Positions 22,334 through 57,679 of a stretch of 64,000 bases of DNA are shown piece after piece. The stretch comes from a virus (taxonomy: Duplodnaviria; Heunggongvirae; Uroviricota; Caudoviricetes): IMG/VR virus record IMGVR_UViG_3300021399_000109, positions 94,710 to 158,709 of that record; one strand, written 5' to 3'. The stretch's first letter is position 1. Each line of letters begins with the position of its first letter. Made by a program: the position numbers and the translations under genes. The notes beneath the pieces are model-generated. The model saw only the letters and a list, made by a program, of their open reading frames with translations. It had not been told where the DNA came from and made no database searches.

Positions 22334-22355
22334 AATATAAAAGGAGATAAATGAT

Positions 22356-22583: not shown

Positions 22584-22617
22584 GTGAAATAGATAAAAAA
22601 ATTTTTTAAAAAAAAGC

Positions 22618-22646: not shown

Positions 22647-22685
22647 TAATAGTGTCAGATGAAGCGAAACATCTGACAATTATAT

Positions 22686-22761
22686 GCTCCCGTAGCCCAA
22701 TTAGGCAGTAGGCACAGGACTTAAAATCCTTTCAGTATGGGTTCGAATCCCATCGGGAGTA
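22686..22761 (+). tRNA. tRNA with anticodon TAA (Leu, UUA codon) but short variable arm; discriminator A
   Basis: Acceptor GCTCCCG/CGGGAGT, anticodon stem CAGGA/TCCTT with loop CTTAAAA, T-arm ATGGG-TTCGAAT-CCCAT. Preceded by promoter 22618-22646 and a hairpin. Confidence 0.6.
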
Positions 22762-22828
22762 TTTAGCATTAAAAGAATGTATAAATTAAATGCTAATTGA
22801 ATTTATTTTTATCACACGATAAAAACAA

Positions 22829-22891: not shown

Positions 22892-24247
22892 ATGTCAAAC
22901 ACACAAATTCTAACACGTAAATTTCAGATTTTTCCAGTAGGAGACAAAGAAGAGATTAATCGAGTTTATCAGTATATTAGAGATTGTCAGTATGTACAAA
23001 ACAAAGCTTATAATATTCTTATTAGTAATGTTTATTCTGCTATTATTTCTGGTAAATCAAAAGAAGAAATTAATCTGATTTATAAAAAAGGTGGAAGAAA
23101 ACCTAAAGAGAATAATCCAGATTATAGTCTTTATAATTATAATGATTTTAAAGTACCTGTAGGATTAACAATAATAGGGGCACTTCCTCAAACAGTAAAA
23201 AATGATTTAAAAACTGCTCAAAAGGCAGGATTATTTAAAGGTAACTCTGCTTTACCTAATAGAAGAAGAACGGCTAGTTTAAATATTCAACCTATATATG
23301 TTAGATTAAGAGATATTAATTTACGTAACCCTAAAATAACTTCTAAAACTGGTATTTATCATACCTATTCTTCTTATAATGATTTTTTAGATAATTTATA
23401 TTCTAAAAGAGAATTAGATATTTATCTTGCATTTGCGAATAATATTACTTTTAAATTTGTGTTAGGAAATCCTTATAAATCCTATCAAGATAGAAATATT
23501 TTACAGCATATTTTTGAAGAAGATTATTTAGTTAAGGGAAGTTCAATCTCTTTTGATAAGACTAATAAAAAAATTATGTTAAATCTGAGTATGGAAATAC
23601 CTAAAAAAGAGATTGAATTAAAAGAGGATGTCGTAGTAGGAGTTGATGTAGGATTAGCCATTCCTGCTGTTTGTGGATTAAATATAAATTCATATGCGAG
23701 AGAATACATTGGTTCTAAGGATGATTTTTTACGAGTTAGAACACAGATTTCTAATGAATGTAAAAGAGTTCAGAAGAATTTAAAAATGATTAAAGGTGGT
23801 CATGGACGTAAGAAAAAAATGAAACCTTTAGATAGATTCAGATTAAAAGAAAAAAATTTTGTTCAGACCTACAATCATATGGTCAGTAAACGTGTTGTTG
23901 ACTTTGCCGTAAAAAATCATGCAAAATATATTAATCTAGAAAATCTTAAAGGATATGATGCCAATATATTTATTTTAAGAAATTGGTCATATCATCAGCT
24001 TCAGCGGTATATTAAATACAAAGCTGAAAAATACGGAATAGAAACAAGAATGATTGACCCTTATCATACATCTCAGATTTGTTCTTGCTGTGGTCATTGG
24101 GAAGAAGGTCAAAGAATTAACCAATCAACTTTTATTTGTAAAAATCCTGAATGTAAAAATTTTGGAATAAAAATAAACGCTGATTTTAATGCTTCAAGGA
24201 ATATAGCATTATCTACAAATTTTATATCTGCCGATTCTGCCGAATAA
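22892..24247 (+). CDS. compact RNA-guided-nuclease-like protein (TnpB/Cas12f-like, 451 aa) with split RuvC and zinc finger
   Basis: RuvC-I VVVGVDVGLAIP. RuvC-II YINLENL. Zinc finger CSCCGHWEEGQRINQSTFICKNPEC. RuvC-III INADFNASRNIA. RBS AAAGAAAGGAGCAATATG. A CRISPR-like array lies 185 bp downstream. Confidence 0.8.
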   Translation: MSNTQILTRKFQIFPVGDKEEINRVYQYIRDCQYVQNKAYNILISNVYSAIISGKSKEEINLIYKKGGRKPKENNPDYSLYNYNDFKVPVGLTIIGALPQTVKNDLKTAQKAGLFKGNSALPNRRRTASLNIQPIYVRLRDINLRNPKITSKTGIYHTYSSYNDFLDNLYSKRELDIYLAFANNITFKFVLGNPYKSYQDRNILQHIFEEDYLVKGSSISFDKTNKKIMLNLSMEIPKKEIELKEDVVVGVDVGLAIPAVCGLNINSYAREYIGSKDDFLRVRTQISNECKRVQKNLKMIKGGHGRKKKMKPLDRFRLKEKNFVQTYNHMVSKRVVDFAVKNHAKYINLENLKGYDANIFILRNWSYHQLQRYIKYKAEKYGIETRMIDPYHTSQICSCCGHWEEGQRINQSTFICKNPECKNFGIKINADFNASRNIALSTNFISADSAE

Positions 24248-40205: not shown

Positions 40206-41343
40206 TTAGACCCTCTTATACAGTAATGTATATTAAAAAACTCTTTAAATTGCGGGAAACTCCTTAGAGCATTAGTAACCAAGTTTAATTAGTAATAATT
40301 AAATGGCAAATAGTAATGTATTTGGTAAGGTAACAGCACTAATGATTGGACAATCCGCATCAAAATCTCTCAAACAAATTGTATAGAAATGGAGGGAAAA
40401 TGGGATGTAAAAGATTAAGTGATGAAGACGAAAAAAAACTTGTGGACGAATATTTAAAAGGTGTTGCTGTTAAACAATTAATGATTAAATATGGTTTTGC
40501 AAGTAAAAAGTCTATAATAGATAAAGTAAAGAAGTATTATCCAAATTATAAAGAGATGTTAGAACAGGCTAAAGAAAATCGAAAAACATATTCATTAGAT
40601 TTATCAAAAATTGATAGTCCATTTAATGCGTATCTTATTGGATTATTATTAACAGATGGCTATATTATTGATAATAATAAATTTGGTTTGCAATTAACAG
40701 ATGAAGATTGTATTCGATTTATTTCTGAAGCAACTAATAATCCATATTATTCGTATAAAACAAAAGAATATAAAACAGAATATAGAATTGTATTTAGTGG
40801 CTCTCAATATATTGAGCAATTAAAAAGATATAATATTACTGCGAAAAAATCATATACTGTTAAAGGATTTGATTTTTATGAGGACGAAATTAAATATATC
40901 CCTTTTTTAATTCGTGGAATTATTGATGGGGACGGATGTATTCATAAAACTACTAAAGGAAGTGTAAGTTTTTATATTTGTTCAATGTCTTATGACTTTA
41001 TTTTATGGATACAAGAAATATTGGAAAAACGGTTTTTTATGGAAGATACTCATATAAAACAAAGTAATATAAATAATATTTGGATAGTTGAAACTTCTTT
41101 ACAAACTAATATTTTTAAATTAATGGCAATTGTTTATGACAGACCTTATGGTATGTCTCGTAAATATAATTGTTTGAGAGAGATGTTCAGAGACTATAAT
41201 AAGAGTAACCAACAAAATTTTATTTGGAATGATGTTGGTTAATGGTATAGTCCAGACCGCAACCTTAACAGGGCTTGGGAAACCAAGTGCGGTAAAGTAA
41301 TAAGTCCCATACACTTGCTTATTCAATGATTCTTTTGCAAGAA
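40203..41343 (+). mobile_element. 1.14-kb insertion carrying a LAGLIDADG homing-endonuclease gene (group I intron-like or free-standing HEG cassette) splitting dnaE; flanked by 9-bp direct repeat TTAAATCTT
   Basis: TTAAATCTT at 40194-40202 and 41344-41352. Removing the segment plus one repeat copy restores an in-frame ...RGYGLNLNYRWNPIYWQTANL... The flanks are GC-richer and structured (paired segments AATTGCGGG/CCGCAT and ACCGCA...TGCGGT, TAGTCC after the HEG). Confidence 0.6.
40400..41242 (+). CDS. LAGLIDADG homing endonuclease (two-motif type)
   Basis: Two LAGLIDADG motifs, AYLIGLLLTDGYI and FLIRGIIDGDGCI. RBS-like AATGGAGGGAAAATGGGATG. Confidence 0.75.
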   Translation: MGCKRLSDEDEKKLVDEYLKGVAVKQLMIKYGFASKKSIIDKVKKYYPNYKEMLEQAKENRKTYSLDLSKIDSPFNAYLIGLLLTDGYIIDNNKFGLQLTDEDCIRFISEATNNPYYSYKTKEYKTEYRIVFSGSQYIEQLKRYNITAKKSYTVKGFDFYEDEIKYIPFLIRGIIDGDGCIHKTTKGSVSFYICSMSYDFILWIQEILEKRFFMEDTHIKQSNINNIWIVETSLQTNIFKLMAIVYDRPYGMSRKYNCLREMFRDYNKSNQQNFIWNDVG

Positions 41344-42720
41344 TTAAATCTTAATTATAGATGGAATCCTATTTATTGGCAAACAGCTAATCTTATTGTA
41401 GATTCTGGTTCGTTGGACAATAATTCAAATGATGCTACAGATTATGGCAAGATAGGTATTGCGATTGCAAATATTAAAAAAGAAAATGTTAATATTGAAA
41501 TTCCATTAATTAATGAAGCAGGATTTGGTTTTGAACCCGATGAAAATAATAACAGAATTATTTTTGGCTTAAAAGCAATAAATGGAATCAACACTGAAAT
41601 TTCACAAGCAATTATTCAAAACCGTCCATATAGTTCCATGGAAGATTTTGCAAGTAAACTTTTAGATACTGGAATTATTAAAAATGCTCAAATGATTAAA
41701 CTAATTAAAGCAGGTTGTTTTACTGAACTTCATAGTCCTAATAAAGAGATTACAATGGAATGGTATTTAAGAAATTATAAATATAATCCACTTAAAAAAT
41801 TAACACTAAGTCAGTTACCTGCTTTAAGAGAGAAAAAACTTATTCCAGAAGCTTTTGACAAGTGTGTCAAGATATTAATTTTAAAAGATTACATCTTAGA
41901 CGATGAAGGATTTTATGCTAATTATATTGACCCTAATAAGAAACCTTTAAAACGTGGTTATCATGATAGATATTATATTTTAGATGATAATAGTCAACCT
42001 ATTTTTAAAGATTATTTTTCTGAGAATTGTATAGTTGGAGTACAAGGGGAATATTTTTTAGTTTCAGAAAAACAGATTGATAAAGAAGCCAAAGTATTTA
42101 TAGAACCTTTCAGAGAGTGGATGAATAGTGCTGATGCTATTAATAGATATAATTTAAGTTGTTTCTTAGATGTATGGGAACAATATGCAAGTGGAAATAA
42201 AGCACATTGGTCTATGGAGTCTTTGACTTATTATGACGAAGAACACGAATTAGAAAATGTAAACGAATCTTTATATGGAATAGTTAACTTCTTTGATTTA
42301 CCTGAAGAACCTGTAGCGTATGATTGGTATACAAGATGGATTAACGGTGAAAGAAAAGTATTTCCTAAATATAATATTAGTCGTATAGCAGGTACAGTGA
42401 TTAATGCAGATAATAATCATCATATGGTATCTTTATTAACTAAATATGGATTAGTTAATGTAAAAATGAATAAAGGACATTATGCCTTTTATAATAAACA
42501 GATTTCTCAAATTGATGAAGATAATAAAAATAAAAAACATAAAATAGAAGATAGTTGGCTTAAACGTGGTCAGATGATTATTGTTTCTGGCATTAGAATG
42601 GGGGATACTTTTTATCCCAGAATTTATAATGATACAATTTATAAACATACAGTTAGTTTAATTAAAGAAGTTAATAAAAATGGAACTTTATTATTACAAA
42701 ATGAAAGGACAAAAATATAA
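41326..42720 (+). CDS. dnaE: DnaE-like polymerase, C-terminal portion
   Basis: Begins MILLQELNLNYRWNPIYWQTANL, which overlaps the LNL at the end of the N-portion and matches the ...AYALxAYQTAYLK region of PolIII alpha. Confidence 0.7.
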   Translation: MILLQELNLNYRWNPIYWQTANLIVDSGSLDNNSNDATDYGKIGIAIANIKKENVNIEIPLINEAGFGFEPDENNNRIIFGLKAINGINTEISQAIIQNRPYSSMEDFASKLLDTGIIKNAQMIKLIKAGCFTELHSPNKEITMEWYLRNYKYNPLKKLTLSQLPALREKKLIPEAFDKCVKILILKDYILDDEGFYANYIDPNKKPLKRGYHDRYYILDDNSQPIFKDYFSENCIVGVQGEYFLVSEKQIDKEAKVFIEPFREWMNSADAINRYNLSCFLDVWEQYASGNKAHWSMESLTYYDEEHELENVNESLYGIVNFFDLPEEPVAYDWYTRWINGERKVFPKYNISRIAGTVINADNNHHMVSLLTKYGLVNVKMNKGHYAFYNKQISQIDEDNKNKKHKIEDSWLKRGQMIIVSGIRMGDTFYPRIYNDTIYKHTVSLIKEVNKNGTLLLQNERTKI

Positions 42721-46699: not shown

Positions 46700-47002
46700 A
46701 TGTTAGCATATAATTTAAATGATTTAAGTAATGTAAAACCTTTAGTTGATATTTGTGAAAAATATAAACCTTACTTTAATGTAGATATTATTCATGGACA
46801 TTATGTGGTTGATGGTTGTAGTTATTTGGGGATTTGTTCAATGTGTCCCAATATTGTTTCTATTGTGCCTGTTCTTCCAGAAATTATTGATGAAGGAACA
46901 AGAACTAAATATTTTCAATTTAATCAAGAAATAATGAAATTGGGTAGAGAAAGTCATGAATCTAATTGGGCGGAGAAAGTCATGAGTCTAAGGAGCGTCT
47001 AA
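46700..47002 (+). CDS. hypothetical protein
   Basis: RBS AGAGGAGTAAAAGATG. Confidence 0.4.
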   Translation: MLAYNLNDLSNVKPLVDICEKYKPYFNVDIIHGHYVVDGCSYLGICSMCPNIVSIVPVLPEIIDEGTRTKYFQFNQEIMKLGRESHESNWAEKVMSLRSV

Positions 47003-47017
47003 GGAGTAAGATAAGAT

Positions 47018-47605
47018 ATGTTATTAATTATTGGTGGAAAATCTGGTTCTGGAAAAGATAGTATTGTTAAAGAATTTGAGAAAAATGGTTGGAAAAAAAT
47101 TATTAAATACACTAATAGACCTAAAAGAGAGGGCGAAATTGATGGAGTAGATTATCATTTCGTATCCACTGAACTTATGGAAATAATACCTTTTATTTTT
47201 AAACAATCTTTTGTAGTAGCAAATGGTGATACATGGTATTATGGTTTTCCTATGGAACACATAATACTTCCCGATAATAAAAATGATAAATATATAACAA
47301 TTATGACTCCATTTGAATATAATAGTTTTCTTAATATGACAAAGGAGTTTAAAATAATAGGAAAAGATTTTATTTCCGTACAGATTGATATTCCAGATAA
47401 CATACGAAGAGAGCGTTTAATTAAGCGTGGAGATAATATAGAAGAAATTAATAGAAGAATTAAAGCAGATAACAAAGATTTTGAAGGATGGGAACTAAAA
47501 CATAGAAAAGAAAGTCAATTTCCTTTATTTTATATTCGTGATGGAATAGGAGATAGAACTCCTGAAGATATATATAATACAATTATTAAAATGATGGAAT
47601 CATAG
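47018..47605 (+). CDS. P-loop nucleotide (dNMP/guanylate-type) kinase
   Basis: N-terminal P-loop LLIIGGKSGSGKDS. About 195 aa. Sits in the nucleotide-metabolism module. Confidence 0.5.
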   Translation: MLLIIGGKSGSGKDSIVKEFEKNGWKKIIKYTNRPKREGEIDGVDYHFVSTELMEIIPFIFKQSFVVANGDTWYYGFPMEHIILPDNKNDKYITIMTPFEYNSFLNMTKEFKIIGKDFISVQIDIPDNIRRERLIKRGDNIEEINRRIKADNKDFEGWELKHRKESQFPLFYIRDGIGDRTPEDIYNTIIKMMES

Positions 47606-47618
47606 AAAGGAGTTACAT

Positions 47619-47834
47619 ATGGATGTAGTTTTATATTCAACAGATGGATGCCCTAAATGTAATGAAATAAAAAAGGGACTCGATAAAAAGAAAATTGATT
47701 ATATTCTTATTCATGGGGAAGAAGCTGAGAATGAAGTAATTAAAATGGGATATAATTCAATGCCTATTTTAAAAGTAGATGATAGAATTATGAAATATCC
47801 AGAAGCTTATAACTGGTTAAGAAAAGAGGTTTGA
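47619..47834 (+). CDS. nrdH: NrdH/glutaredoxin-like redoxin
   Basis: CPKC active site near the N-terminus of a 71-aa protein, immediately upstream of nrdD. Confidence 0.6.
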   Translation: MDVVLYSTDGCPKCNEIKKGLDKKKIDYILIHGEEAENEVIKMGYNSMPILKVDDRIMKYPEAYNWLRKEV

Positions 47835-47835
47835 T

Positions 47836-49695
47836 ATGGGATTAGAGCAATATAGAAAAAATATAGAATATATACAAAGATATAGAAAAGCTTCTAATGC
47901 GGCTACAGGTAGTAAGTTTGATGCCAATGCTAATGTAGAAAATAAAAATATTACTACCATGATGGGAGAATTACCCAAAGAAGATATAATTGGAACTAAT
48001 AGGCTTCTTATGTATGATAAAATAACTGAAATATTTGACAACTATCTTGCTCAAAACTATTTAGAACAACTTAATGAACATTTAATTTATAAACATGACG
48101 AAACAAGTTTATATCCTTATTGTGTAAGTATTACTATGTATCCTTTTATTTCTAAAGGAATGAAAGATATAGGTGGTATTTCAGAAGCACCTAAAAATTT
48201 ACAGTCTTTTTGCGGTTCTTTTATTAATTTAGTATTTGCTGTTGCCGCTCAATTTGCAGGAGCAGTTAGTACCCCAGAATTTTTAACATATATGGATTAT
48301 TTTATTCGTAGAGAATATGGGGACGAATATTATAAACATACCAAAAAGGTAGTAGATTTATCTAAAAGAGGACGAACATTAGATGATGTAATTACAGGCT
48401 ATTGGCAACAAATTATTTATTCTATTAATCAGCCTGCCGCCGCAAGAAATTATCAAAGCGTATTTTGGAATATTGCTTATTTTGATGAACCATATTTTAA
48501 TGGTATTTTTGAAGATTTTGTTTTCCCAGATGGTACTGCCCCTAAGTGGGAATCAGTTAATTGGTTACAGAAACGATTTATGATTTGGTTTAATCAAGAA
48601 AGACTTAGAACTATTTTAACTTATCCTGTTGAAACATTTAATTTATTAAATAATGAAGAGGATTTTGTAGATAAAGATAATGCTGATTTTGTTGCAGAAA
48701 TGTGGAGTAAAGGGCATTCATTCTTTATGTATAATAGTAATAGTGTAGATTCGTTGGCTTCATGTTGCAGACTTCGCAACGAATTACAGGACAATGCTTT
48801 TTCATATACGCTTGGAGCAGGTGGTGTTTCAACAGGTAGTAAAGGTGTTATTACACTTAATTTTAATCGTTTGATTCAAAATACCATTAAAGATAAAGAA
48901 CATATTGATTGGGATGCTTTAGATAAAGCAATTAGAGATGAAATTAAAACAATTCATAAATTCCTTATTGCTTATAATGAAATTGTTAAGGATAATCTTA
49001 AAGCAGGTATGTTACCTGTGTATGATGCAGGATATATTAATATGTCTAAACAATTTCTTACAATAGGTATTAATGGTTTAATTGAAGGAGCAGAATATTT
49101 AGGAATTGATATATCTACAAATGATAAATATTTTGATTTTTGTACAAAATGTTTAAAACCTATTTATGAAGAGAATAAAAAGGCTAAGACTAGAGACTTA
49201 ATGTTTAATACTGAATATGTTCCTGCTGAGAATCTCGGTGTTAAAAATGCTAAATGGGATAAAGAAGATGGCTATTTTTCTCCTAGAGATTGTTATAATT
49301 CATATTTTTATCGTCCAGAAGATGAAACTTGTTCTCCTGTTGATAAATTAATTTTACATGGTAAACAAACCACAAAATGGTTAGATGGTGGTTCAGCTTG
49401 CCATATTAATCTTCAAGAACATCTTTCTAAAGAACAATATAAAAAGTTAATGAAAATAGCAATTAAAACAGGCTGTTCTTATCTAACATTTAATATACCC
49501 AATACTATTTGCAACGATTGTGGAAATATTAGTAAACATCGGTTTGAAAAATGTCCTAAATGTGGTTCTGAAAATATTGATTATGCCACAAGAATAATTG
49601 GATATTTAAAAAGAGTTTCTAAATTTTCTGAACAAAGACAAAAAGAAGAAGCTAAGAGGGTTTATTGGGATGATACCAAAGTTAAAGTATGTTAA
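47836..49695 (+). CDS. nrdD: anaerobic ribonucleoside-triphosphate reductase (class III)
   Basis: C-terminal zinc ribbon CNDCG...CPKCGS followed by the glycyl-radical motif TRIIGYLKRV. Confidence 0.8.
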   Translation: MGLEQYRKNIEYIQRYRKASNAATGSKFDANANVENKNITTMMGELPKEDIIGTNRLLMYDKITEIFDNYLAQNYLEQLNEHLIYKHDETSLYPYCVSITMYPFISKGMKDIGGISEAPKNLQSFCGSFINLVFAVAAQFAGAVSTPEFLTYMDYFIRREYGDEYYKHTKKVVDLSKRGRTLDDVITGYWQQIIYSINQPAAARNYQSVFWNIAYFDEPYFNGIFEDFVFPDGTAPKWESVNWLQKRFMIWFNQERLRTILTYPVETFNLLNNEEDFVDKDNADFVAEMWSKGHSFFMYNSNSVDSLASCCRLRNELQDNAFSYTLGAGGVSTGSKGVITLNFNRLIQNTIKDKEHIDWDALDKAIRDEIKTIHKFLIAYNEIVKDNLKAGMLPVYDAGYINMSKQFLTIGINGLIEGAEYLGIDISTNDKYFDFCTKCLKPIYEENKKAKTRDLMFNTEYVPAENLGVKNAKWDKEDGYFSPRDCYNSYFYRPEDETCSPVDKLILHGKQTTKWLDGGSACHINLQEHLSKEQYKKLMKIAIKTGCSYLTFNIPNTICNDCGNISKHRFEKCPKCGSENIDYATRIIGYLKRVSKFSEQRQKEEAKRVYWDDTKVKVC

Positions 49696-50149
49696 TTATG
49701 GAATTGTACTCGAAGAAGTTCCAGATGAAATTAGTTTAGCAATTAATATTAGTGGATGCCCTTATAGGTGTGAAGGATGTCATTCAAAATATCTTTGGGA
49801 ATATACTGGTAATTATTTAGAAGAAGATTTAGATAAAATAATTGAACCTTATAAAGAATATATAACGTGTATTTGTCTTATGGGTGGAGACCAAAATATT
49901 TCTGAATTATATAAAATATGTGAATTAATTAAAAATGAATATAATTTAAAAATTTGTATTTATTCTGGACATAATACAAGAGCTATATTCACTAAATTTA
50001 TTGCTGATGAACTATTAGATTATTTAAAAATAGGTTCTTATATTCGTGAATTAGGTGGTTTAAATAATCCGGCTACAAATCAAAGAATGTATAAAATAGA
50101 GAATAGAACAATAAAAGATATTACAAAAAAATTTCAACATACTACTTGA
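49670..50149 (+). CDS. nrdG: anaerobic RNR activating protein (radical SAM)
   Basis: CPYRCEGCHS matches the CxxxCxxC radical-SAM cluster. Overlaps the nrdD end. Confidence 0.75.
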   Translation: MIPKLKYVNYGIVLEEVPDEISLAINISGCPYRCEGCHSKYLWEYTGNYLEEDLDKIIEPYKEYITCICLMGGDQNISELYKICELIKNEYNLKICIYSGHNTRAIFTKFIADELLDYLKIGSYIRELGGLNNPATNQRMYKIENRTIKDITKKFQHTT

Positions 50150-50174
50150 CAAAAGCATAATAATAAGCTATAAT
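50146..50174 (+). promoter_or_regulatory. sigma70-type promoter (perfect consensus) overlapping the nrdG 3' end, followed by a leader hairpin
   Basis: TTGACA, 17-bp spacer, TATAAT. Hairpin plus T-run at 50194-50228. Gene at 50250. Confidence 0.55.
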
Positions 50175-50249
50175 AAGAATATACCAAAGTTCGAAAGGCA
50201 GTATCTTGAACATGGTACTGCCTTTTATATTCACAAAAAAGGAGGAAAA

Positions 50250-50642
50250 ATGAAACCAATTAGCTACAATAGTCAATATAAGAATAAGTATTATGTTCCA
50301 AAAAAAGTTCGAGAAAATTTATATAGAAGAGGTTTTAGATACAGCTTCTTAGATGATGGATATGTGCTAAAATTTCCAATTGATACTTATAAAAATATTC
50401 CAACTTTATTCGCAAGAATTGTAATTAATGATTATACAAATGAAGTTAGAATTAATGTAGTTAATGGGTCTAACGAACCTTATCCTGCTTTTTATAAGTG
50501 TGAAAATAAAGGGTATATTAACTATTTAGATAGAGTTTGCACTACAATTAATAAGCGTATGAAACGCATGGGATTTAAAGTAAAACATAAAAAAGAAAAA
50601 GTAATTTTTGAATATGAAAACCCTAAACAGATTTTTAAATAA
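50250..50642 (+). CDS. hypothetical protein
   Basis: RBS AAAAAGGAGGAAAAATG after a leader hairpin. Confidence 0.45.
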   Translation: MKPISYNSQYKNKYYVPKKVRENLYRRGFRYSFLDDGYVLKFPIDTYKNIPTLFARIVINDYTNEVRINVVNGSNEPYPAFYKCENKGYINYLDRVCTTINKRMKRMGFKVKHKKEKVIFEYENPKQIFK

Positions 50643-50658
50643 TAGAAAAGGAGATTAA

Positions 50659-52020
50659 ATGTATAACGGTTATGTAACAACAATTAAAGAAATCCATAAA
50701 CACTCAAATGCTGACAGATTACAGTGTGTTACAGTATTTGGCAACAATGCTATTGTTGATATGTCATATAAAATGGGACAGAAAGTAGTTTTCTTTCCTG
50801 TTGATGGTCAGCTTAGTAAAGAGTTTGCTACTAAATGCAATCTAGTTAAAAAGTATGTTCCAGTTTCTGAACTTTCAGAAGAGGAAATCGGGAATAAACC
50901 TATTGTACAGAAAGATGGAATTGACGTTGTTAATGTAGGTGGATATATGGATGCTGAAAAGCGTAATATTACTGCATTAAAACTTCGTGGTGAAAAATCA
51001 GAGGGATTAATTCTTCCTATTGAAACTTTATCTGATTATACAGATATTAATAAATTAAAAGATGGGGATATTATTTCTACATTAAATGGACATGAAATTT
51101 GTAAAAAATATATTCCTATTAGAAAAAAGAGAGGTTCTCAGAATAATAATATTAAAGTCAATAAGAAAGAATTAAAAGAAGTTGTAGCCTATCCTTTTTT
51201 CTGTGAACATATTGACACACAGCAGTTAGCTTATAACCAGAACGCATTTAAAGAGGGGGATATTTGTTATATTACTTTGAAAATGCATGGAACAAGTCAG
51301 CGAACTGCAAATACTGTTCAGGTTACTACAATTAAGAGGAATCCTATTTTAAAGAAACTTTTCCATCTTAAAGATAAGGTAGTTAAAGAATATAAATATA
51401 TTTCTGGAACTAGAAGAACTACTTTAAGAGAATACGATGGTGGTTATTATGGTGATAATAAATTTAGACAGAAATATCATGATTTCCTTAAAGATAAACT
51501 TCCTAAAGGTGTAGAAATTTTTTATGAAGTTGTAGGTTATGCAAACGGTGAACAAACTATTATGGGCAAATGCTCTAATAAACTTATTAGAGATAAGAAA
51601 TTCCAGAAACAGTATGGAGAAGAAACAGTATTCTCTTATGGCTGTGGTGTAGGCGAAAATGATGCCTATGTTTATCGTATGACTATGACAAATGAGGATG
51701 GTTACGCTATTGAAATACCTTGGGAGCAGGTACAGATTGAAGTAGAAAAAATGGGTATGAAATGTGTTCCTACTTTTGAGAAATTTATTTTTACTACTTG
51801 GGAAGATTTGATGGAAAGAGTAGAAAAATATTATGATGGAGTTGACCCCATTGGTAAGACACATGTTCGTGAGGGTGTTGTCGTAAGAATTGATAATAGA
51901 CCTACTTTTACAGCATATAAACATAAGAACTTTAGTTTTAAATGCTTAGAGGGTATTATTAAGGATAATGCTGATGCCCCTGACATGGAAGAAGCGGAAG
52001 AAATTATTAATAATGAATAA
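50659..52020 (+). CDS. Rnl2-type RNA ligase with N-terminal tRNA-binding (Trbp111/EMAP-like OB) domain
   Basis: Nucleotidyltransferase motif I ITLKMHGTS (T4 Rnl2 has KIHGTN). Motif IV-like REGVVVR. Motif V-like YKHKNFSFK. N-terminal IKEIHKHSNADRLQCVTVFGN resembles tRNA-binding domains. Confidence 0.6.
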   Translation: MYNGYVTTIKEIHKHSNADRLQCVTVFGNNAIVDMSYKMGQKVVFFPVDGQLSKEFATKCNLVKKYVPVSELSEEEIGNKPIVQKDGIDVVNVGGYMDAEKRNITALKLRGEKSEGLILPIETLSDYTDINKLKDGDIISTLNGHEICKKYIPIRKKRGSQNNNIKVNKKELKEVVAYPFFCEHIDTQQLAYNQNAFKEGDICYITLKMHGTSQRTANTVQVTTIKRNPILKKLFHLKDKVVKEYKYISGTRRTTLREYDGGYYGDNKFRQKYHDFLKDKLPKGVEIFYEVVGYANGEQTIMGKCSNKLIRDKKFQKQYGEETVFSYGCGVGENDAYVYRMTMTNEDGYAIEIPWEQVQIEVEKMGMKCVPTFEKFIFTTWEDLMERVEKYYDGVDPIGKTHVREGVVVRIDNRPTFTAYKHKNFSFKCLEGIIKDNADAPDMEEAEEIINNE

Positions 52021-52040
52021 TTAAAAAAGGAGATTAAAAA

Positions 52041-52709
52041 ATGAATATGGCAGATGGATTCAATAATATGTTTAATGGTATGTTTGGTAAAATTCAGAGT
52101 GGTCAGTGTAGACTTGCTATGAATGGACGTATTGCAGTAAAGACTTCTACTGGTTATAAAACTTATGACCTTAAAAAGAATAGACTTACTAACTGTAATA
52201 ATTTTGTTTTTAATGGTATGGATGAATTTTTCTTTGTCATTCCTACTAATAAAGCCCAGAGGGGAGATATTATTCTTGTTCAGGGTCAGCCTAGATGCGT
52301 TGTTAAAGTAGAAGATAACCAGATTACTGTTGTTAATTACGAAAACAATACAGTAGAAACCGTTCTTCCTGAAAGACATGTATTTATGGGCAATACTTAT
52401 TTCTACGGTAAAATCGTATCTCTGTTTGGCGGTACGAATTTTAAAGGCAAGAATGGTATGAATAACATCATGAAATATATGATGCTTTCCGAAATGATGA
52501 AAGGTAATGGCGGTAATAATAACAACATGTTTGGTAACATGATGCCTTTTGTACTTATGAGTAATAATGGTATGGATATGTTTGCAGGTCTTTTTGATTT
52601 TGAAGATTCTGTTATTGATATGCCTTTCTCTTTGACGAAAGATAATGATACAGACGATACTGATGATTCTGATGATACAGATAATGATGTAGATGGAGAT
52701 GACAAGTAA
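52041..52709 (+). CDS. Met/Asn/Gly-rich protein with poly-acidic C-terminal tail
   Basis: Low-complexity GNGGNNNNMFGNMM and C-terminal DTDDTDDSDDTDNDVDGDDK. Confidence 0.45.
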   Translation: MNMADGFNNMFNGMFGKIQSGQCRLAMNGRIAVKTSTGYKTYDLKKNRLTNCNNFVFNGMDEFFFVIPTNKAQRGDIILVQGQPRCVVKVEDNQITVVNYENNTVETVLPERHVFMGNTYFYGKIVSLFGGTNFKGKNGMNNIMKYMMLSEMMKGNGGNNNNMFGNMMPFVLMSNNGMDMFAGLFDFEDSVIDMPFSLTKDNDTDDTDDSDDTDNDVDGDDK

Positions 52710-53596
52710 TGGGTAGCGGAAGTTATAGTAAAGACGATTTTATAAGTTATACTAGTGCGACAAAACGTGATGCAATTTTTGATAGTTTAGGAAGGATTAC
52801 CAATAGTTATTCTGAACAAGATGTTTTTAAACAGACTAATCTTTCTTCTACATTAAATCCTTATAATGTTATGCGTGAATGTTGTGACACGGAAGAGCAT
52901 CCTAACACAATTCCTGTAATTCTTGCTCTTGATGTTACTGGTTCTATGGGTTCTGCTTCTCTTGAAGTAGCTAAAAGTCTTAATGTGATTATGGAGAATT
53001 TATATAAGAATATTAAAGACATTGAATTTTGTATTATGGGGATTGGTGATATGGCTTATGACCGTTGCCCTGTTCAAATGTCTCAGTTTGAATCTGATAT
53101 TCGTATTGCAGAAAATGTAGATGCTATCTATCATGAACATGGTGGTGGGGGCAATTCCTATGAATCTTATTCTTTGGCATGGTATATGGGATTACATCAT
53201 ACTAGTCTTGATTGTTGGAAACGTAATAAAAAGGGTATTATTATTACATTAGGAGATGAGAATCTTAACCCTTATATTCCAGTAGTTGGTTATAAAACTA
53301 CGATTGAAAGATATATGGGAGATGATGTTCAAGGAACAATTGAAACCAAAGACCTTTATGAAGAAGCATCCAAAAAATTTGATATTTATCATATTCATGT
53401 AAATCATTCTCATAGTAGTAATATGAGAGAGAAAGACGCTGTTACTACTTTCGGTGATGTTATTGGGGCAGATAAGGTTAAAGTTGCTACATTAGAAACA
53501 TTACCTGATACTATTGTAGATATTATTGTAAATGCTAGTGATAATAATTATGTTGCACCTGAAAATAATTCTAGTGGGGGTATTGCTTGGGTATGA
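52709..53596 (+). CDS. von Willebrand factor A (vWA) domain protein
   Basis: MIDAS-like LDVTGSMGS. Confidence 0.55.
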   Translation: MGSGSYSKDDFISYTSATKRDAIFDSLGRITNSYSEQDVFKQTNLSSTLNPYNVMRECCDTEEHPNTIPVILALDVTGSMGSASLEVAKSLNVIMENLYKNIKDIEFCIMGIGDMAYDRCPVQMSQFESDIRIAENVDAIYHEHGGGGNSYESYSLAWYMGLHHTSLDCWKRNKKGIIITLGDENLNPYIPVVGYKTTIERYMGDDVQGTIETKDLYEEASKKFDIYHIHVNHSHSSNMREKDAVTTFGDVIGADKVKVATLETLPDTIVDIIVNASDNNYVAPENNSSGGIAWV

Positions 53597-54837
53597 CAAA
53601 AAATGTCAAAGTAATAATTGGTGCGAATTACGGTGACGAAGGAAAGGGATTGGGGACAGATTACTTCTGTTCCCTTAACCCTGAATCTACTATTGGTGTA
53701 TTGACTAATGGTAGCGCACAAAGAGGACATACTGTAGATACAAAAGATGGACATCATCATGTATTCCATCATTTTAGTTCAGGCACTTTCAATAATATCC
53801 CCACTTATATATCTAATTCTTTTTTAATTAATCCTATGGCTTTTGTTAAAGAATATAATGAATTAATGACTAAAGGTTTTCAGTCTAAATATTATATTCA
53901 TCCAGATTGTCGTGTTGTCACACCTTTTGATATGATGTGCAATCAAGTTGACATGAAGAAAGAAGAATCTCATAATTCTTGTGGCATGGGAGTATGGCGA
54001 ACTATTAACAGATATAGAAAAGATAAAGAAATAAATCTTAGTATTCAAGAATGGTTTAATTTAATTTTAAATAATAAAGAACAAGCCTTTCAAGAATTAT
54101 ATAATATATTTTTATATTATTATGAAGATATAGATGGGTATTGTACTGATATTAATATTACTAATTTAATAGAACATTTTATACTTGATATTTGTTTTGT
54201 AGTAGATAATGCCATACTTGTTGTAAAAGATACTGAAATTTTAAATAATTTTGAAACAGTAGTTTTTGAAAATGGACAGGGATTAGCATTAAGTGATGAT
54301 TTTTGTTCAGAAGACGAGTTCGAAAAAAACTACTTGACTTCTACTATCACAGGTGCTATAATACCTTATGAAATCATTGAAAGAAATTTTAATAATGCTA
54401 ATGTTGAAATATGTTATGTAACTAGAACTTATTTAACTAGACATGGAGATGGATGGTTTATTGAACTTGATAAAAATAATCCGATTTTTTTATTCGATTA
54501 TACCAATATTTATAATCCATTTCAAGGAAGATTAAGATATAGCTATTTTACTCCTATATTAATTGCAGATATGTTAGATAGAATTACAGATGACTTTTTT
54601 AAAATTTTTACACATCAACTATTTACAATTGATAAAAATAATTATTTTTGTTCTATATTGGTTACACATTGGAATGAAAAACCAGAAATTCATGAGAAAT
54701 TAGCATTAGAAATTACACGATATATAAATTATTTAAAAGAATATAAATATAATGGGAATTTTTATATATCTGATTCTAAATACAGAGATTCTGTAAGAAT
54801 ATATAATAAAGAAGAATTAGAAAAGGAGAACAAATGA
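53587..54837 (+). CDS. adenylosuccinate synthetase (PurA) family homolog
   Basis: N-terminal GANYGDEGKG (PurA GDEGKGK P-loop). AQRGHTV and VFHHFSSGT match the PurA NAGHT...PSGI region. The rest is diverged. Confidence 0.65.
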   Translation: MGMTKNVKVIIGANYGDEGKGLGTDYFCSLNPESTIGVLTNGSAQRGHTVDTKDGHHHVFHHFSSGTFNNIPTYISNSFLINPMAFVKEYNELMTKGFQSKYYIHPDCRVVTPFDMMCNQVDMKKEESHNSCGMGVWRTINRYRKDKEINLSIQEWFNLILNNKEQAFQELYNIFLYYYEDIDGYCTDINITNLIEHFILDICFVVDNAILVVKDTEILNNFETVVFENGQGLALSDDFCSEDEFEKNYLTSTITGAIIPYEIIERNFNNANVEICYVTRTYLTRHGDGWFIELDKNNPIFLFDYTNIYNPFQGRLRYSYFTPILIADMLDRITDDFFKIFTHQLFTIDKNNYFCSILVTHWNEKPEIHEKLALEITRYINYLKEYKYNGNFYISDSKYRDSVRIYNKEELEKENK

Positions 54838-55103
54838 AAAAGAAAGAAACGATTTATGTAATTCCTGCACATATCCTTGAAAAATATGCAAAAGCATATT
54901 ACTTGGTAGAAGCTATGAATGAGGATGGGATTTTTGATAATCTGGGGGATAGTTTTATTATTGATTATATTGATAATAATTTCCCTGATAAAGATTACAA
55001 TGACCTTGATGACGTAGTAAAACATGAAGATATGCTTTACTGGAAATCTATCAATGCTAAAGATTGTTATGAAAGAGAAGATAAAAAGAAAGGGAGTAAA
55101 TAA
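54834..55103 (+). CDS. hypothetical acidic protein
   Basis: Overlapping start. RBS GGAGAACAAATG. Confidence 0.4.
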   Translation: MKKKETIYVIPAHILEKYAKAYYLVEAMNEDGIFDNLGDSFIIDYIDNNFPDKDYNDLDDVVKHEDMLYWKSINAKDCYEREDKKKGSK

Positions 55104-55104
55104 T

Positions 55105-55527
55105 ATGATTAAAATGAATATTTCACTTGATAAAGGGGCTTTTCTTCCAGAAAGAAAGCATCCTACAGATGCAGGTTATGATTTAAAAACACCTTTTGAT
55201 TTTTCTATTGCTATGAATAGTAGAATGTTTATTAACACAGGAGTTCATGTAGAACTTCCTCCTAATACGGTAGGTATGATTAAATCTCGTTCAGGGCTTA
55301 ATAAAAATTCTGGTATCCAATGCGAGGGAGTAATTGATGAGAATTATAGAGGAGCAATTGGGATTGTCCTTTATAATCATTCTAATGAACCTGTTGTATT
55401 TAAGAAAGGTGATAGAATTGGTCAGCTTGTGATTCTTCCTTGTATTTATACTGAACTAACAGTTGTCGATGAATTAACGGATACTGATAGAGGTGAAGGC
55501 GGTTTTGGTAGTACGGGAGTAAGTTGA
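55105..55527 (+). CDS. dut: dUTPase (trimeric dUTPase/dCTP-deaminase fold)
   Basis: KHPTDAGYDL and SRSGL motifs. RBS AAGGGAGTAAATAATATG. Internal start chosen over the ORF-track 55024. Confidence 0.7.
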   Translation: MIKMNISLDKGAFLPERKHPTDAGYDLKTPFDFSIAMNSRMFINTGVHVELPPNTVGMIKSRSGLNKNSGIQCEGVIDENYRGAIGIVLYNHSNEPVVFKKGDRIGQLVILPCIYTELTVVDELTDTDRGEGGFGSTGVS

Positions 55528-55733
55528 AGGGGGCTAAAATGCATTTTTTCTTAAACAATATATTTATACCAACTTTTATATTTATAGCCTATATATTTGG
55601 CGTAGTTGCTTCTACAATGCTTATACTTTATTGCATAGGTCTCATTCTAGACGCAAAATATTCATTAGAAACACAATTTAGATGTCATAAAAAAGAAGTA
55701 GAAAGGAGAAAGAAACGAAATGATTGTACTTGA
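55524..55733 (+). CDS. small membrane protein
   Basis: One hydrophobic helix. Overlaps the dut stop. Confidence 0.4.
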   Translation: MKGAKMHFFLNNIFIPTFIFIAYIFGVVASTMLILYCIGLILDAKYSLETQFRCHKKEVERRKKRNDCT

Positions 55734-55896
55734 AGTTAAAAATTTAATTGCTATTGTTGTTGCTATTTTTGTACTTTTTAGTGGTGTATTACTTTTTACT
55801 CCATTTGCTAAAGTATTTGAGAATCTTACTAAAAAGCATTTTATTGTAGGTTGGTTTCTTCTTATGATTTCTTTGATTGCAAATATTCTTTCTTAG
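55720..55896 (+). CDS. small membrane protein (58 aa)
   Basis: RBS AAAGGAGAAAGAAACGAAATG. Two hydrophobic segments. Confidence 0.35.
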   Translation: MIVLEVKNLIAIVVAIFVLFSGVLLFTPFAKVFENLTKKHFIVGWFLLMISLIANILS

Positions 55897-55922
55897 AATA
55901 TTAAATAAAGGAGTAAAATAAT

Positions 55923-56147
55923 ATGGGAAGATTACCAGAAAGATTAGTACCTATATATGATATTATAGGACATTATCATATGACAACTTGCCCAGATTTA
56001 CGAATAGGACAGTTATTTTCTAATTTTGAAGTATGGTTAGAAAAAGAAGTTGGAACAGATATTTATTATTTGGAAGACTATAGATTTTTAGAATATTTAG
56101 AAAAATATTTAGATTCAATTACTTATATTAAAAAAAATAAGGATTAA
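55923..56147 (+). CDS. hypothetical protein
   Basis: RBS AAAGGAGTAAAATAATATG. Confidence 0.4.
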   Translation: MGRLPERLVPIYDIIGHYHMTTCPDLRIGQLFSNFEVWLEKEVGTDIYYLEDYRFLEYLEKYLDSITYIKKNKD

Positions 56148-56162
56148 AAAGGAGATTAATAA

Positions 56163-57086
56163 ATGATTGGTTTAATTATTTTAGGAATTGTTATTATTGG
56201 TGGAGCATTAATATTTATGGGTCTGTCAGAAAATGTTAATTTATTTGGGGTCATTGGAGTTATTGTTGGTCTTATTACTCTTATATTAGGATTCTCAATC
56301 AGTTTTGTCCCTACAGGGTATATTGGTATTAGAACTGCATATGGACAAATTGCAGGAAATCCTGTTTCGTCTGGTCTTCATTTTCATGTACCGTTCGTAG
56401 AAGATATTCATAATATGAACTGTAAACAGCAAGAAATTGTTTTTGGTGAAGGACAGATTTGGTCTGAAACTTCTGAACGTACCGAAGTATATGCTGAAAA
56501 TATTGCAATTGATTATCAGATTAACTCTGAATATGGCGCATGGATTTGGTCGAATGTTGAGGAATGGGACACTAATCTTGTTAAAAGGACTTCTGTTGAA
56601 TCTGGACTTAAAGCGGCTTTCAAACAGTATAATGACGCTGATGTAACAGATAGAAGTAAAATTGAAAAAACGGCTAAAGAATGTATTCAGGAATCTTTAG
56701 ACATAAAATATAATAATCGAGTTGTTACTGTTATTAGCGTAACAATTAGCAATATTAACTTCTCTGATGCTTATAATGATGCTATTGAAAAAAAGGCACA
56801 GGCTAAACTTTCTGCTGAAGCACAGGCTTATGAGAATCAGAAAGCTGTTGACCAAGCAAAGGCAGAAGCTGAAAAACGAAAAATTGAAGCTGAAGGTAAG
56901 GCTGAAGCTAAGATTATTGAAGCTGAAGCTGAAGCTGAAGCTAATAAAAAGATTGCCAATTCTATTACAGAAAAAACTCTACAAAGAGAATGGATTAAAA
57001 AGTGGGATGGTAAGACACCTGTAGTAGTAAGTTCTGACGGTAATATTATGTATGGCATTGAAACTACTGAAAATAAAGAAGAATAA
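56163..57086 (+). CDS. SPFH/band-7 (stomatin/prohibitin/HflK-like) membrane protein
   Basis: N-terminal TM. YIGIRTAYGQI...GLHFHVPFVEDI matches the SPFH core. C-terminal AEAEAEA coiled coil. Confidence 0.7.
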   Translation: MIGLIILGIVIIGGALIFMGLSENVNLFGVIGVIVGLITLILGFSISFVPTGYIGIRTAYGQIAGNPVSSGLHFHVPFVEDIHNMNCKQQEIVFGEGQIWSETSERTEVYAENIAIDYQINSEYGAWIWSNVEEWDTNLVKRTSVESGLKAAFKQYNDADVTDRSKIEKTAKECIQESLDIKYNNRVVTVISVTISNINFSDAYNDAIEKKAQAKLSAEAQAYENQKAVDQAKAEAEKRKIEAEGKAEAKIIEAEAEAEANKKIANSITEKTLQREWIKKWDGKTPVVVSSDGNIMYGIETTENKEE

Positions 57087-57130
57087 TTTTAATTAAAATA
57101 TATTTTACTAAAATATAATTTAGTAAAAAA

Positions 57131-57176
57131 CAAAAAAGGGGGATACCAACCTACACGGCTAGTACCCCCCTAATTT
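57131..57176. terminator. bidirectional terminator at the convergence point of the + strand and - strand gene blocks
   Basis: AAAAAAGGGGGATACC...GGTACCCCCCTAATTTT, with A-run upstream and T-run downstream. Confidence 0.6.
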
Positions 57177-57679
57177 TATTTCTGATTCTGATTTAATTGG
57201 TCTTGTAACCCCATTTCACTTAAATCAGCAAAATCAGCATTATGAATATGGTCAGAATATCTGCGTCTAATTTCTTTAATTGACGCTTCAATTACACCAT
57301 TTTTCCTATTATATTTTTTAATATACTCTTCGTATTCATCACATTCCATTATCATAAAATCAAAAGCTTCTTTCGTATAATGTTTCCCACCCATACCGTC
57401 TTCAACAAACTGCAATATTCTTGCTCTTTTTCTTTTTATTGAACTATCTCGGCTTTCTTCTACGTGTTCTGTTAATTTAGCATCTAAACTATCAACTTTT
57501 TTTATGATATGTGAGTTTAATCTATCTCCTATCCAACCCAAGAGGAAATCCCAAGGATTTATTTTGATAGGAGCTATTTGAATTATTGTCATTAAAACGA
57601 GAATTAACGCTACTATAAAACCTGTTGCTCCTGTCATTTCTGATATATTTATCATTTCAAATAAGTCCTGTAAAGACAT
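57176..57679 (-). CDS. single-TM membrane protein downstream of endolysin (holin or lysis-regulator candidate)
   Basis: TM segment ATGFIVALILVLMTIIQIAP. The start abuts the endolysin stop on the minus strand. Confidence 0.4.
   Translation of the reverse strand: MSLQDLFEMINISEMTGATGFIVALILVLMTIIQIAPIKINPWDFLLGWIGDRLNSHIIKKVDSLDAKLTEHVEESRDSSIKRKRARILQFVEDGMGGKHYTKEAFDFMIMECDEYEEYIKKYNRKNGVIEASIKEIRRRYSDHIHNADFADLSEMGLQDQLNQNQK

Follow-up and report, generated by a model that had tools for sequence, protein, structure and literature searches.

A strain-variable phage RNA ligase gene of Rnl5 architecture without its usual kinase-HD neighbour

We analysed a 64-kb stretch of DNA from a tailed virus (64,000 nucleotides; hereafter the window) and identified, on the plus strand at 50659..52020, a gene for a 453-aa RNA ligase of Rnl5 architecture. 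The product is probably an ATP-dependent polynucleotide ligase that supplies the sealing step of a phage RNA-repair module and is carried as a strain-variable single-gene cassette. What is new here is the setting: a kinase-HD end-healing gene lies beside the ligase, directly 3′ of it, in 67 of 70 related viral loci, yet in this phage the ligase is an orphan, flanked by direct repeats, variable between strains and under selection.

The open reading frame proposed in an initial annotation of this DNA, with every motif quoted there, is present in the sequence, and it was assigned using profiles, Foldseek, hhalign and dN/dS. A Pfam search matched PF09414 above its cutoff (34.2 bits), and PHROG 968 matched over the full length (E = 1.9e-63). 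Identity is 52.5% to a protein of Bacillus phage vB_BcoS-136, over 98% of its length, and 25–30% to mycobacteriophage proteins; a megablast of 47000–55000 against cultured phages returned no match. PHROG 968 is annotated as 'RNA ligase' in 379 cultured phage records, and this long phage subfamily comprises 2,101 clusters at 50% identity, of which we found no biochemically characterised member in the literature. The NCBIfam model TIGR02306 (RNA_lig_DRB0094 equivalog) reached 44.7 bits against a cutoff of 151.15 (E = 7.9e-12), over residues 95–216 only; judged by this profile, the ligase is a relative of the strict DraRnl equivalog group but not a member. Judged by sequence, the gene product is an unexceptional member of an established family of phage RNA ligases, ATP-dependent and of Rnl5 type.

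For structural comparison we used an AlphaFold2 model built from 58 diverse sequences (pLDDT 93), which replaced a model from 19 close sequences (pLDDT 71.5). Foldseek identified NgrRnl as the nearest solved structure, over the full length (E = 3e-17, TM 0.67–0.71). By contrast, T4 Rnl2 matched the NTase domain only (~290 columns, E = 6.6e-7, TM 0.43). Alignment with a canonical phage Rnl5 by hhalign (99.3% probability) covered both domains, starting at residue 3. Against the PDB, the diverse profile A2 matched NgrRnl residues 8–178 (E = 1.5e-7), whereas a single-sequence search and the narrow profile A1 (at least 66% identity) gave no match. The NTase-only profile A3 had no significant PDB match (best T4 Rnl2, E = 0.15), so the NTase residue mapping was taken from the hhalign alignment to canonical phage Rnl5.

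These comparisons refute, at the level of architecture, the 'Rnl2-type' label in the title of the initial annotation: membership in the Rnl2 family is highly improbable, since T4 Rnl2 and trypanosome REL1 have a C-terminal helical domain and lack an N-terminal OB domain, the ligase has the reverse arrangement, only the NTase aligns, and the full-length NgrRnl fold match is ten orders of magnitude better. The same annotation was right to read the C-terminal part as an RNA rather than a DNA ligase; PF09414 scores above its cutoff, and by profile the protein does not qualify as a DNA ligase, ATP- or NAD-dependent, with an adenylation domain and a C-terminal OB. Its idea of a new fusion does not hold, because an OB domain plus NTase without a C-terminal domain is the published signature of Rnl5, a family described between 2004 and 2015 with phage members included (PMC1807946, PMC4408790, PMC5397189). 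The appropriate label is 'Rnl5-type ATP-dependent RNA ligase' and not a new tRNA-targeted fusion; that label alone would be routine annotation.

The N-terminal OB domain (aa 1–150; 50659..51108, plus strand, as are all features below) has a PheRS-beta B2/Trbp111-like fold and carries a ~28-aa insertion at about aa 65–93. Two of its residues that match NgrRnl positions are conserved: D49 (Asp53 in NgrRnl) and K150 (Lys121). A linker of low confidence (about aa 151–178; 51109..51192), with pLDDT 50–81 in both models and poor conservation in the A2 alignment, leads to the nucleotidyltransferase (adenylyltransferase) domain at aa ~179–428 (51193..51942). We judged motif invariance across 58 homologues. 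In motif I, KMHGTS (51280..51297), K208, G211 and S213 are invariant and the segment aligns with NgrRnl KLDGSS; K208, the counterpart of NgrRnl Lys170, is predicted to accept AMP, and H210 takes the position of NgrRnl Asp172. Some relatives' ligases contain inteins, inserted after G211. The motif Ia region, SGTRR (51403..51417), has an invariant R252 and aligns with the SRN motif of canonical Rnl5. Motif III, FYEVVGY (51520..51540), contains the invariant E290 (NgrRnl Glu227, by hhalign) and G293, while motif IIIa, YVYRM (51667..51681), contains the invariant Y339 and R340, conserved in at least 90%. E405 (NgrRnl Glu312) and G406 are invariant in motif IV, EGVVVR (51871..51888), as are both K421 and K423 in motif V, KHK (51919..51927). 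The protein ends in a conserved short tail (51943..52017), a helix followed by an acidic D-x-EE end, which is not a domain. This tail extends 30 residues beyond motif V, forms two short helices in the model with pLDDT down to 52–67 at the end, and retains F427, E431, K435, D442 and E444 in at least 90% of the A2 sequences. It is absent from canonical Rnl5 proteins, which end just after motif V.

The ligase thus shares with DraRnl (Deinococcus radiodurans DR_B0094) and NgrRnl (Naegleria gruberi, PDB 5COT) the order OB to NTase without a C-terminal appendage, the motif I lysine, the glutamates of motifs III and IV, the motif V lysine and the OB Asp53/Lys121 equivalents; EGVVV in motif IV is common to it and DraRnl (PMC1807946). 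It differs in being ~110 residues longer, through the OB insertion, a longer linker, NTase insertions and the acidic C-terminal tail, in having KxHGTS where they have KxDGSS in motif I, and in its motif V KxK. Profile and hhalign alignments showed no conserved counterpart of NgrRnl Arg4 and Arg149. Because the NTase has diverged, His replaces Asp172 and Arg4 and Arg149 lack counterparts, substrate preference could differ from that of DraRnl and NgrRnl.

Characterised Rnl5 enzymes seal 3′-OH/5′-PO4 nicks in duplexes, need an RNA 3′-OH strand, prefer Mn2+ and require the OB domain for adenylylation (PMC4408790, PMC1807946). They prefer nicked duplexes, are feeble on single-stranded RNA and do not seal all-DNA nicks (PMC4408790). 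The OB domain of NgrRnl takes part in catalysis as a co-domain, binding the gamma-phosphate of ATP and a metal during adenylylation (PMC7261155). For the phage ligase, the identity, architecture, conserved catalytic residues, gene context, strain variation and selection are observed, and the substrate, metal requirement and physiological role are inferred. From the solved homologue and the conserved residues, we infer that K208 would attack ATP to form ligase-AMP, with the N-terminal OB domain closing over the active site and D49 and K150 helping to orient the pyrophosphate leaving group. AMP would then pass to the 5′-PO4 end, and attack by the RNA 3′-OH end would seal the break, presumably most efficiently at a nick in duplex or structured RNA.

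At 78 related loci the ligase is accompanied by an end-healing enzyme of the kinase-HD type, in which a P-loop kinase and an HD phosphoesterase are joined in one protein. This kinase-HD is alternatively paired with a canonical Rnl5 or a T4 Rnl1-type ligase. In large gut-type phages one healing enzyme is thus combined interchangeably with any of three kinds of ligase, the long Rnl5-like, the canonical Rnl5 and the Rnl1-type, and a Thg1-like gene for tRNA 5′-end repair is often near. The pattern lends comparative support to a role in RNA and tRNA repair for Rnl5, whose physiological function has been described as uncharted, the natural substrates of the type members included (PMC5397189).

We found no such partner here. 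In the window, tblastn queries for a kinase-HD, a T4-like Pnkp and an ATP DNA ligase found none, HAD and P-loop motif scans of the window and PHROG, Pfam and NCBIfam scans of about 60 ORFs revealed no healing partner, and Rnl1-like and Thg1-like queries had no match in the window. The earlier remark that no Pnkp partner is obvious nearby is borne out on a larger scale: no healing enzyme is encoded in the window or the 10 kb beyond its start, together 74 kb of the 158.9-kb scaffold. That scaffold (158,921 bp) is ENA ERZ28612961, SHIW14-1_SAMN02144230-S010_METAG-scaffold_83, on which the window lies reversed at positions 479–64478. One may exist elsewhere in the genome, within the about 85 kb beyond, as in Cluster J mycobacteriophages, where the healing enzyme is unlinked to the ligase (PMC3706429). 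Other phages of the long subfamily (PHROG 968, PHA02142-type OB), namely vB_BcoS-136 (gp191), mycobacteriophage 244 (gp92), LeBron (gp85) and Omega (gp162), encode a polynucleotide kinase, of either the kinase-HD or the T4-like Pnkp type, beside the ligase or elsewhere, unlike the 74 kb read here. PrrC-type cuts leave 2′,3′-cyclic-PO4/5′-OH ends. As the healing partner is not among the genes read, canonical heal-and-seal of such cuts cannot be completed by the visible genes. The ligase would represent the sealing half of a heal-and-seal module whose usual kinase-HD healing half is missing here; alone, it would seal only breaks that are already 3′-OH/5′-PO4, and otherwise would need a healing activity, phage-encoded elsewhere or from the host.

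The gene is a single-gene cassette, found in some strains of the phage and missing from sister strains. A repeat search, with junction alignment to two ligase-less sister genomes (L125 and L126), identified a 17-nt direct repeat bracketing it. The left copy, TAGAAAAGGAGATTAAA (50643..50659), contains the RBS, which is strong for the ligase; the right copy, TAAAAAAGGAGATTAAA (52022..52038), belongs to the same repeat family and holds the RBS of the next gene. The copies are identical at 16 of 17 positions and spaced 1379 nt apart, and the ligase-less genomes keep one copy between the flanking genes up130 and dn222. Within the kinase-less lineage, 25–27 synonymous against 8–9 non-synonymous differences give a dN/dS of 0.07–0.08; where present, the ligase is kept intact by purifying selection.

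Upstream, up130 (50250..50642) encodes a 130-aa basic, lineage-specific protein with no family matches; it and the ligase probably share a transcript. Because up130 is confined to this phage lineage, where genomes that have the ligase and genomes that lack it both carry it, we rejected it as a recurring partner of orphan ligases. The gap between NrdG and up130 holds a perfect sigma-70 consensus, TTGACA-17-TATAAT (50146..50174; 12/12). This site is suggestive only as a candidate promoter for up130, the ligase and the downstream genes, the total count of promoter-like sites being not above that in shuffles. The downstream block (52041..54837) comprises dn222, a 295-aa vWA-like protein (read by eye, not by profile) and an adenylosuccinate-synthetase-like protein, from family scans. 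It fills the place that the kinase-HD gene has in relatives; in ~25 relatives the block lies 6–9 kb past the ligase-kinase pair. The wider region is one of nucleotide metabolism and replication (NrdD/NrdG, dUTPase, adenylosuccinate-synthetase-like), with polymerase, helicase and primase upstream.

A plausible though unlikely alternative is a repair ligase dedicated to tRNA, whose OB domain docks on tRNA and which reseals anticodon-loop cuts of the PrrC, RloC or VapC type in concert with phage tRNAs. The OB domain does belong to the Trbp111/CsaA/PheRS-B2 fold class, the ~28-aa insertion of the subfamily could add binding surface, the module of related phages adjoins a Thg1-like tRNA 5′-repair gene, and an Rnl1-type ligase, the tRNA-repair type of T4, can take the place of this one. 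For mycobacteriophages with this ligase family, an RNA ligase, a Pnk and phage tRNAs were tied together in 2013 in a proposal of counter-defence RNA repair (PMC3706429), the same heal-and-seal logic as that of T4 Pnkp and Rnl1 against PrrC. However, T4 Rnl1 belongs to another ligase family (PF09511), action on anticodon loops is not known for Rnl5 enzymes, and we identified no anticodon nuclease; PrrC-type ends need the healing enzyme that is absent from the 74 kb read, and the preference of Rnl5 for nicked duplexes over single-stranded RNA also argues against this role.

The initial annotation had based tRNA repair on a tRNA-binding OB domain and an adjacent tRNA cluster. Of the first claim the fold class stands, and tRNA targeting is unsupported. 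Pfam tRNA_bind (PF01588) scored 17.2 bits over 30 residues, below its gathering score of 27, and whereas Trbp111, CsaA, EMAP-II and PheRS-beta B2 are tRNA-binding OB domains, in Rnl5 the domain is recruited as a catalytic accessory, with the NgrRnl residues for ATP and metal binding in step 1 conserved here. The cluster of 10 tRNAs said to lie next to the ligase consists of 9 tRNAs 27.9 kb away. They read 39% of the codons of this AT-rich phage, so codon usage explains what had been taken as a sign of nuclease targeting. With the tRNA genes 28 kb away and codon compensation at hand, they give no specific pointer to nuclease evasion, and we rejected tRNA adjacency as evidence for tRNA repair. 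What remains of that function is the link of the family to RNA and tRNA repair through its kinase-HD and Thg1-like context; the tRNA genes are not close by, and no healing partner is encoded within the 74 kb covered.

Less likely still is a DNA-side role, in which the ligase seals nicks with a ribonucleotide-ended 3′-OH strand (RNA patches or primers) when phage DNA is replicated or repaired, and might stand in for a missing phage DNA ligase. The gene does lie among nucleotide-metabolism and replication genes, tblastn and family scans found no DNA ligase in the window, and operation without a kinase suits 3′-OH/5′-PO4 nicks. DraRnl and NgrRnl tolerate DNA in the 5′-PO4 and template strands, and loss of DraRnl slows genome reassembly after irradiation (PMC5397189); in Aeromonas phage 25, a canonical Rnl5 lies between gp32 and frd/td. 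Against this, the gene is wholly missing in sister strains and hence is not essential for replication. In addition, known Rnl5 enzymes do not seal all-DNA nicks, the ligase of relatives belongs to a set of tools for repairing RNA and tRNA, and Bacillus phage vB_BcoS-136 also has a separate DNA ligase.

The long phage subfamily might instead have a different specificity, for tRNA-directed sealing or for 3′-OH/5′-PO4 breaks made by metal-dependent defence nucleases, a reading we regard as improbable. It is raised because of the motif I His, the motif V KxK, the lack of an Arg149 equivalent, the OB insertion and the acidic tail. If true, altered specificity would explain selection of the gene as a stand-alone, horizontally shuffled counter-defence cassette without a healing enzyme. 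That the gene is a decaying remnant, the functionless half of a broken ligase-kinase cassette, is scarcely credible: the partner is missing and sister strains dispense with the gene, but the ORF is intact, every invariant catalytic residue is retained, dN/dS is low and the RBS is strong.

With the sealing half of an RNA-repair module as the preferred reading, near-identical strains with and without the ligase, which is kept without a healer, offer a natural experiment on the role of Rnl5 in vivo. Host clues did not suffice to identify a host; they comprise three MAG bins (Bacteroidales, Lachnoclostridium and Tenericutes), binning being unreliable for phage contigs, and a few Lachnospiraceae-named proteins. 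Two minus-strand ORFs, 51424–51924 and 51831–52379, were noted inside the ligase gene; this region is explained by the homology of the plus strand and by its dN/dS value.

The initial annotation placed an RNA ligase at 50659–52020 of the window, and this open reading frame (ORF) was borne out: it lies on the + strand, starts with ATG behind a strong ribosome-binding site (RBS; AAAGGAGATTAA) and encodes 453 amino acids. All motifs claimed for the protein were found in place, namely the OB segment IKEIHKHSNADRLQCVTVFGN (aa 9–29) and the nucleotidyltransferase (NTase) motifs KMHGT (aa 208–212), EGVVVR (aa 405–410) and KHK (aa 421–423). PHROG 968, 'RNA ligase', spans the entire protein (1.9e-63). 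A Pfam domain search supported the catalytic part, with RNA_ligase (PF09414) matching aa 204–428 at 34.2 bits (cutoff 27), while tRNA_bind matched the N-terminus only weakly (17.2 bits over 30 residues); the best Pfam match there was 'PHA02142 OB-fold', at 23.3 bits and below cutoff.

The protein is correctly labelled an ATP-dependent RNA ligase with Rnl5 architecture, from a long phage subfamily. As published, Rnl5 is defined by an OB domain at the N-terminus (compared to PheRS-beta B2), followed by the NTase domain and nothing C-terminal to it, and the window ligase has the same arrangement. 'Rnl2-type' thus describes the style of its motifs but not its family, and the fusion of OB and ligase domains, although accurate as a description of the protein, is the Rnl5 family signature rather than a novelty. 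Judged by sequence, the enzyme represents a distinct, longer subfamily within this architecture, because of its extra length, its altered motifs, the absence of any significant match in a PDB sequence search with the NTase domain alone, and a score of only 44.7 bits for the NCBIfam DraRnl equivalog, whose cutoff is 151. It is ~110 residues longer than the type members DraRnl and NgrRnl, from which it is set apart by NTase insertions, a disordered linker of greater length, an acidic tail conserved at the C-terminus and, within the OB domain, an insertion of ~28 aa that the Bacillus phage homologue lacks. Motif I reads KxHGTS instead of KxDGSS, with His in place of NgrRnl Asp172, motif V is KxK, and NgrRnl Arg4 and Arg149 are without conserved counterparts. 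The long subfamily already carries the label 'RNA ligase' in 379 cultured-phage records (Mycobacterium, Microbacterium, Gordonia, Prevotella and Bacillus phages); canonical Rnl5 accounts for 335 records, mostly a different set (Pseudomonas and Aeromonas phages, cyanophages). Our reading of the literature turned up no biochemical work on this long subfamily. Overexpression of one member, LeBron gp85, in M. smegmatis is strongly cytotoxic (PMC13148394).

Homologues of 32–55% identity share invariant K150, T187, K208, G211, S213, R252, R270, E290, G293, Y327, Y339, E405, G406, K421 and K423. By alignment, K208 corresponds to the adenylylated lysine of NgrRnl (Lys170), E290 to Glu227 and E405 to Glu312, while K421 and K423 belong to motif V (NgrRnl Lys326); the OB-domain residues D49 and K150 align with Asp53 and Lys121. 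In NgrRnl, Asp53 and Lys121 make contact with the gamma-phosphate of ATP and with the non-catalytic metal while the lysine is adenylylated, and the N-domain is required for step 1 and overall nick sealing but dispensable for step 3 (PMC7261155, PMC4408790). Because conserved residues align with both the catalytic and the OB residues of NgrRnl, the best-supported inference is a classic three-step, ATP-dependent ligation, in which the window ligase would join 3'-OH to 5'-PO4 ends with the OB domain as a catalytic co-domain, probably preferring nicks in duplex or structured RNA. The OB domain might also target tRNA, but no evidence points to this.

Several relatives carry inteins within motif I, between K-x-H-G and S/T-S, the inserted sequence running from C to HN. 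Seven are full-size (~355–364 aa, Hint plus LAGLIDADG; P0122, P0125, P0131, P0132, P0145, P0158 and P0258) and two are mini-inteins (167–182 aa; P0124 and P0134). The equivalent site in the window gene, aa 211/212 (nt ~51291/51292), is without an intein.

Relatives of the ligase are commonly encoded beside end-healing enzymes. Bacillus phage vB_BcoS-136, the closest relative in culture (ligase identity 52.5%), has directly after the ligase a gene annotated 'polynucleotide kinase', which encodes a fusion of a P-loop kinase (AAA_33) with an HD phosphoesterase (kinase-HD). A kinase-HD gene starts 15–35 nt past the ligase stop in 67 of 70 IMG/VR loci with ligases of 43–98% identity, and a T4-like Pnkp is encoded ~270 nt upstream of the mycobacteriophage 244 ligase. 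In a survey centred on kinase-HD (36 loci), the partner was a long ligase in 8, a canonical Rnl5 in 16 (HMM E 1e-52 to 1e-65) and a T4 Rnl1-type ligase (PF09511) in 11, and two ligase types never occurred in one locus. In 28 of the kinase-bearing loci, a Thg1-like gene for tRNA 5'-end repair is found at a distance of up to 10 kb. The three ligase types thus resemble interchangeable sealing parts of a single heal-and-seal toolkit with a leaning towards tRNA. An RNA-repair role for this subfamily is already in the literature, proposed for Cluster J, E and L mycobacteriophages (PMC3706429), and the kinase-HD locus pattern agrees with it. In the IMG/VR survey loci (L082–L116; for example L086:7185–8300, L086:12928–13761 and L107:7390–8550), an additional HD-domain protein, like the Thg1-like gene, is often near kinase-HD, and the whole looks like a modular phage toolkit for tRNA/RNA repair.

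The ligase of the window lineage has no such partner beside it. An identical protein occurs in four metagenomic contigs and a 98% identical one in two IMG/VR contigs (L011 and L014); throughout this lineage, including the window, kinase-HD is absent after the ligase and a 222-aa gene (dn222) begins 20 nt past its stop. The initial annotation had seen no obvious Pnkp nearby, which held for the 64-kb window and 10 kb beyond its start: neither homology searches of this span nor the family scan of ORFs gave a kinase-HD, T4-like Pnkp, Thg1-like, Rnl1-type or DNA-ligase homologue. Without a healer, the ligase would be limited to sealing existing 3'-OH/5'-PO4 ends, unless healing activity is supplied by the host or encoded in the remaining 85 kb. 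Two sister genomes, with flanking genes 95–99% (L125) and 80–90% (L126) identical, lack the ligase, and dn222 directly follows the 130-aa gene (up130) that otherwise precedes it. In the window the ligase is bracketed by 17-nt direct repeats, TAGAAAAGGAGATTAAA (50643–50659) and TAAAAAAGGAGATTAAA (52022–52038), each containing an RBS, 16/17 identical and 1379 nt apart. Because the ligase-less sisters hold a single repeat copy where the window has the gene between two, the ligase is an accessory cassette of one gene that varies between strains, either gained at these repeats or lost by deletion between them. The gene is not in decay: against the L011 or L014 ligase it shows 25–27 synonymous and 8–9 non-synonymous differences (dN/dS 0.07–0.08), and its catalytic residues are fully intact. 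This orphan, strain-variable ligase and the three-way interchangeability of ligases beside one healer are modestly interesting, chiefly as a way into the physiology of Rnl5 enzymes.

The proposed role in tRNA repair is partly supported: the kinase-HD/Thg1-like toolkit of relatives agrees with its spirit, but neither OB targeting nor the tRNA genes add evidence for it. Instead of a ten-tRNA cluster beside the ligase, ARAGORN and Rfam agree on nine tRNAs (Gln-TTG, Glu-TTC, Ser-GCT, Asn-GTT, Ile-TAT, Ser-TGA, Trp-CCA, Lys-TTT and Leu-TAA) at 17807–22762, 27.9 kb upstream, with the replication module between. They read 38.8% of codons in 24 window genes, and AAA, AAT, GAA and TTA, all among the seven commonest codons, are read by them. 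In a phage of 28% GC, codon compensation suffices to explain them. Nuclease evasion would fit the set as well but gains no evidence from it, and the tRNA genes are unlinked to the ligase. Among the tRNAs lies an ORF with a match to a 'tail fiber' PHROG (19005–19646), and a transposase-like ORF (PHROG 506/12300; 22892–24247, +) immediately follows the last of them.

The window, 28%-GC phage DNA at positions 479–64478 of a 158.9-kb metagenomic scaffold, encodes a DnaB-like helicase, primase, exonuclease, DNA polymerase and RecD-like helicase, together with endolysin, tail-fibre genes and an integrase. Upstream of the ligase lie guanylate kinase (47018–47605), glutaredoxin, NrdD, NrdG and the basic up130; downstream, dn222, a 295-aa protein that looks vWA-like by eye, without profile support, a divergent adenylosuccinate-synthetase-like protein and dUTPase. 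The 100-nt NrdG/up130 gap holds a candidate promoter matching the sigma-70 consensus at 12/12 positions (TTGACA-17-TATAAT; 50146–50174, +), the sole perfect match within 47000–57500; with no + strand terminator until ~57.1 kb, the ligase and the genes around it are therefore probably transcribed together. In four loci inspected (L117–L120), canonical Rnl5 genes from cultured phages had no annotated Pnk within 2.5 kb, and that of Aeromonas phage 25 lies between gp32 and frd/td; the replication/nucleotide-metabolism setting is therefore not peculiar to the window.

The three genes after the ligase (52041–52709, 52709–53596 and 53587–54837, +) form a block conserved in ~25 related viral contigs. 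The adenylosuccinate-synthetase-like gene matches PHROG 1211 (labelled PurZ-type; 1.2e-43) and scores 70 bits against a cutoff of 395 for PurA and 31 against 300 for PurZ in NCBIfam; the window showed neither a DatZ-like nor a MazZ-like gene. DNA polymerase is encoded by two ORFs with a LAGLIDADG-type homing-endonuclease ORF between them (37698–40205, 40400–41242 and 41326–42720, +), an arrangement that points to either an intron or a split gene; no intron reached the gathering threshold in Rfam. In the early region before the tRNAs, GmrSD_N-like (DUF262-type; 12111–13394), DUF932 (8786–9904), SprT-like (13535–14059) and tyrosine integrase (14575–15528) genes are clustered on the + strand.
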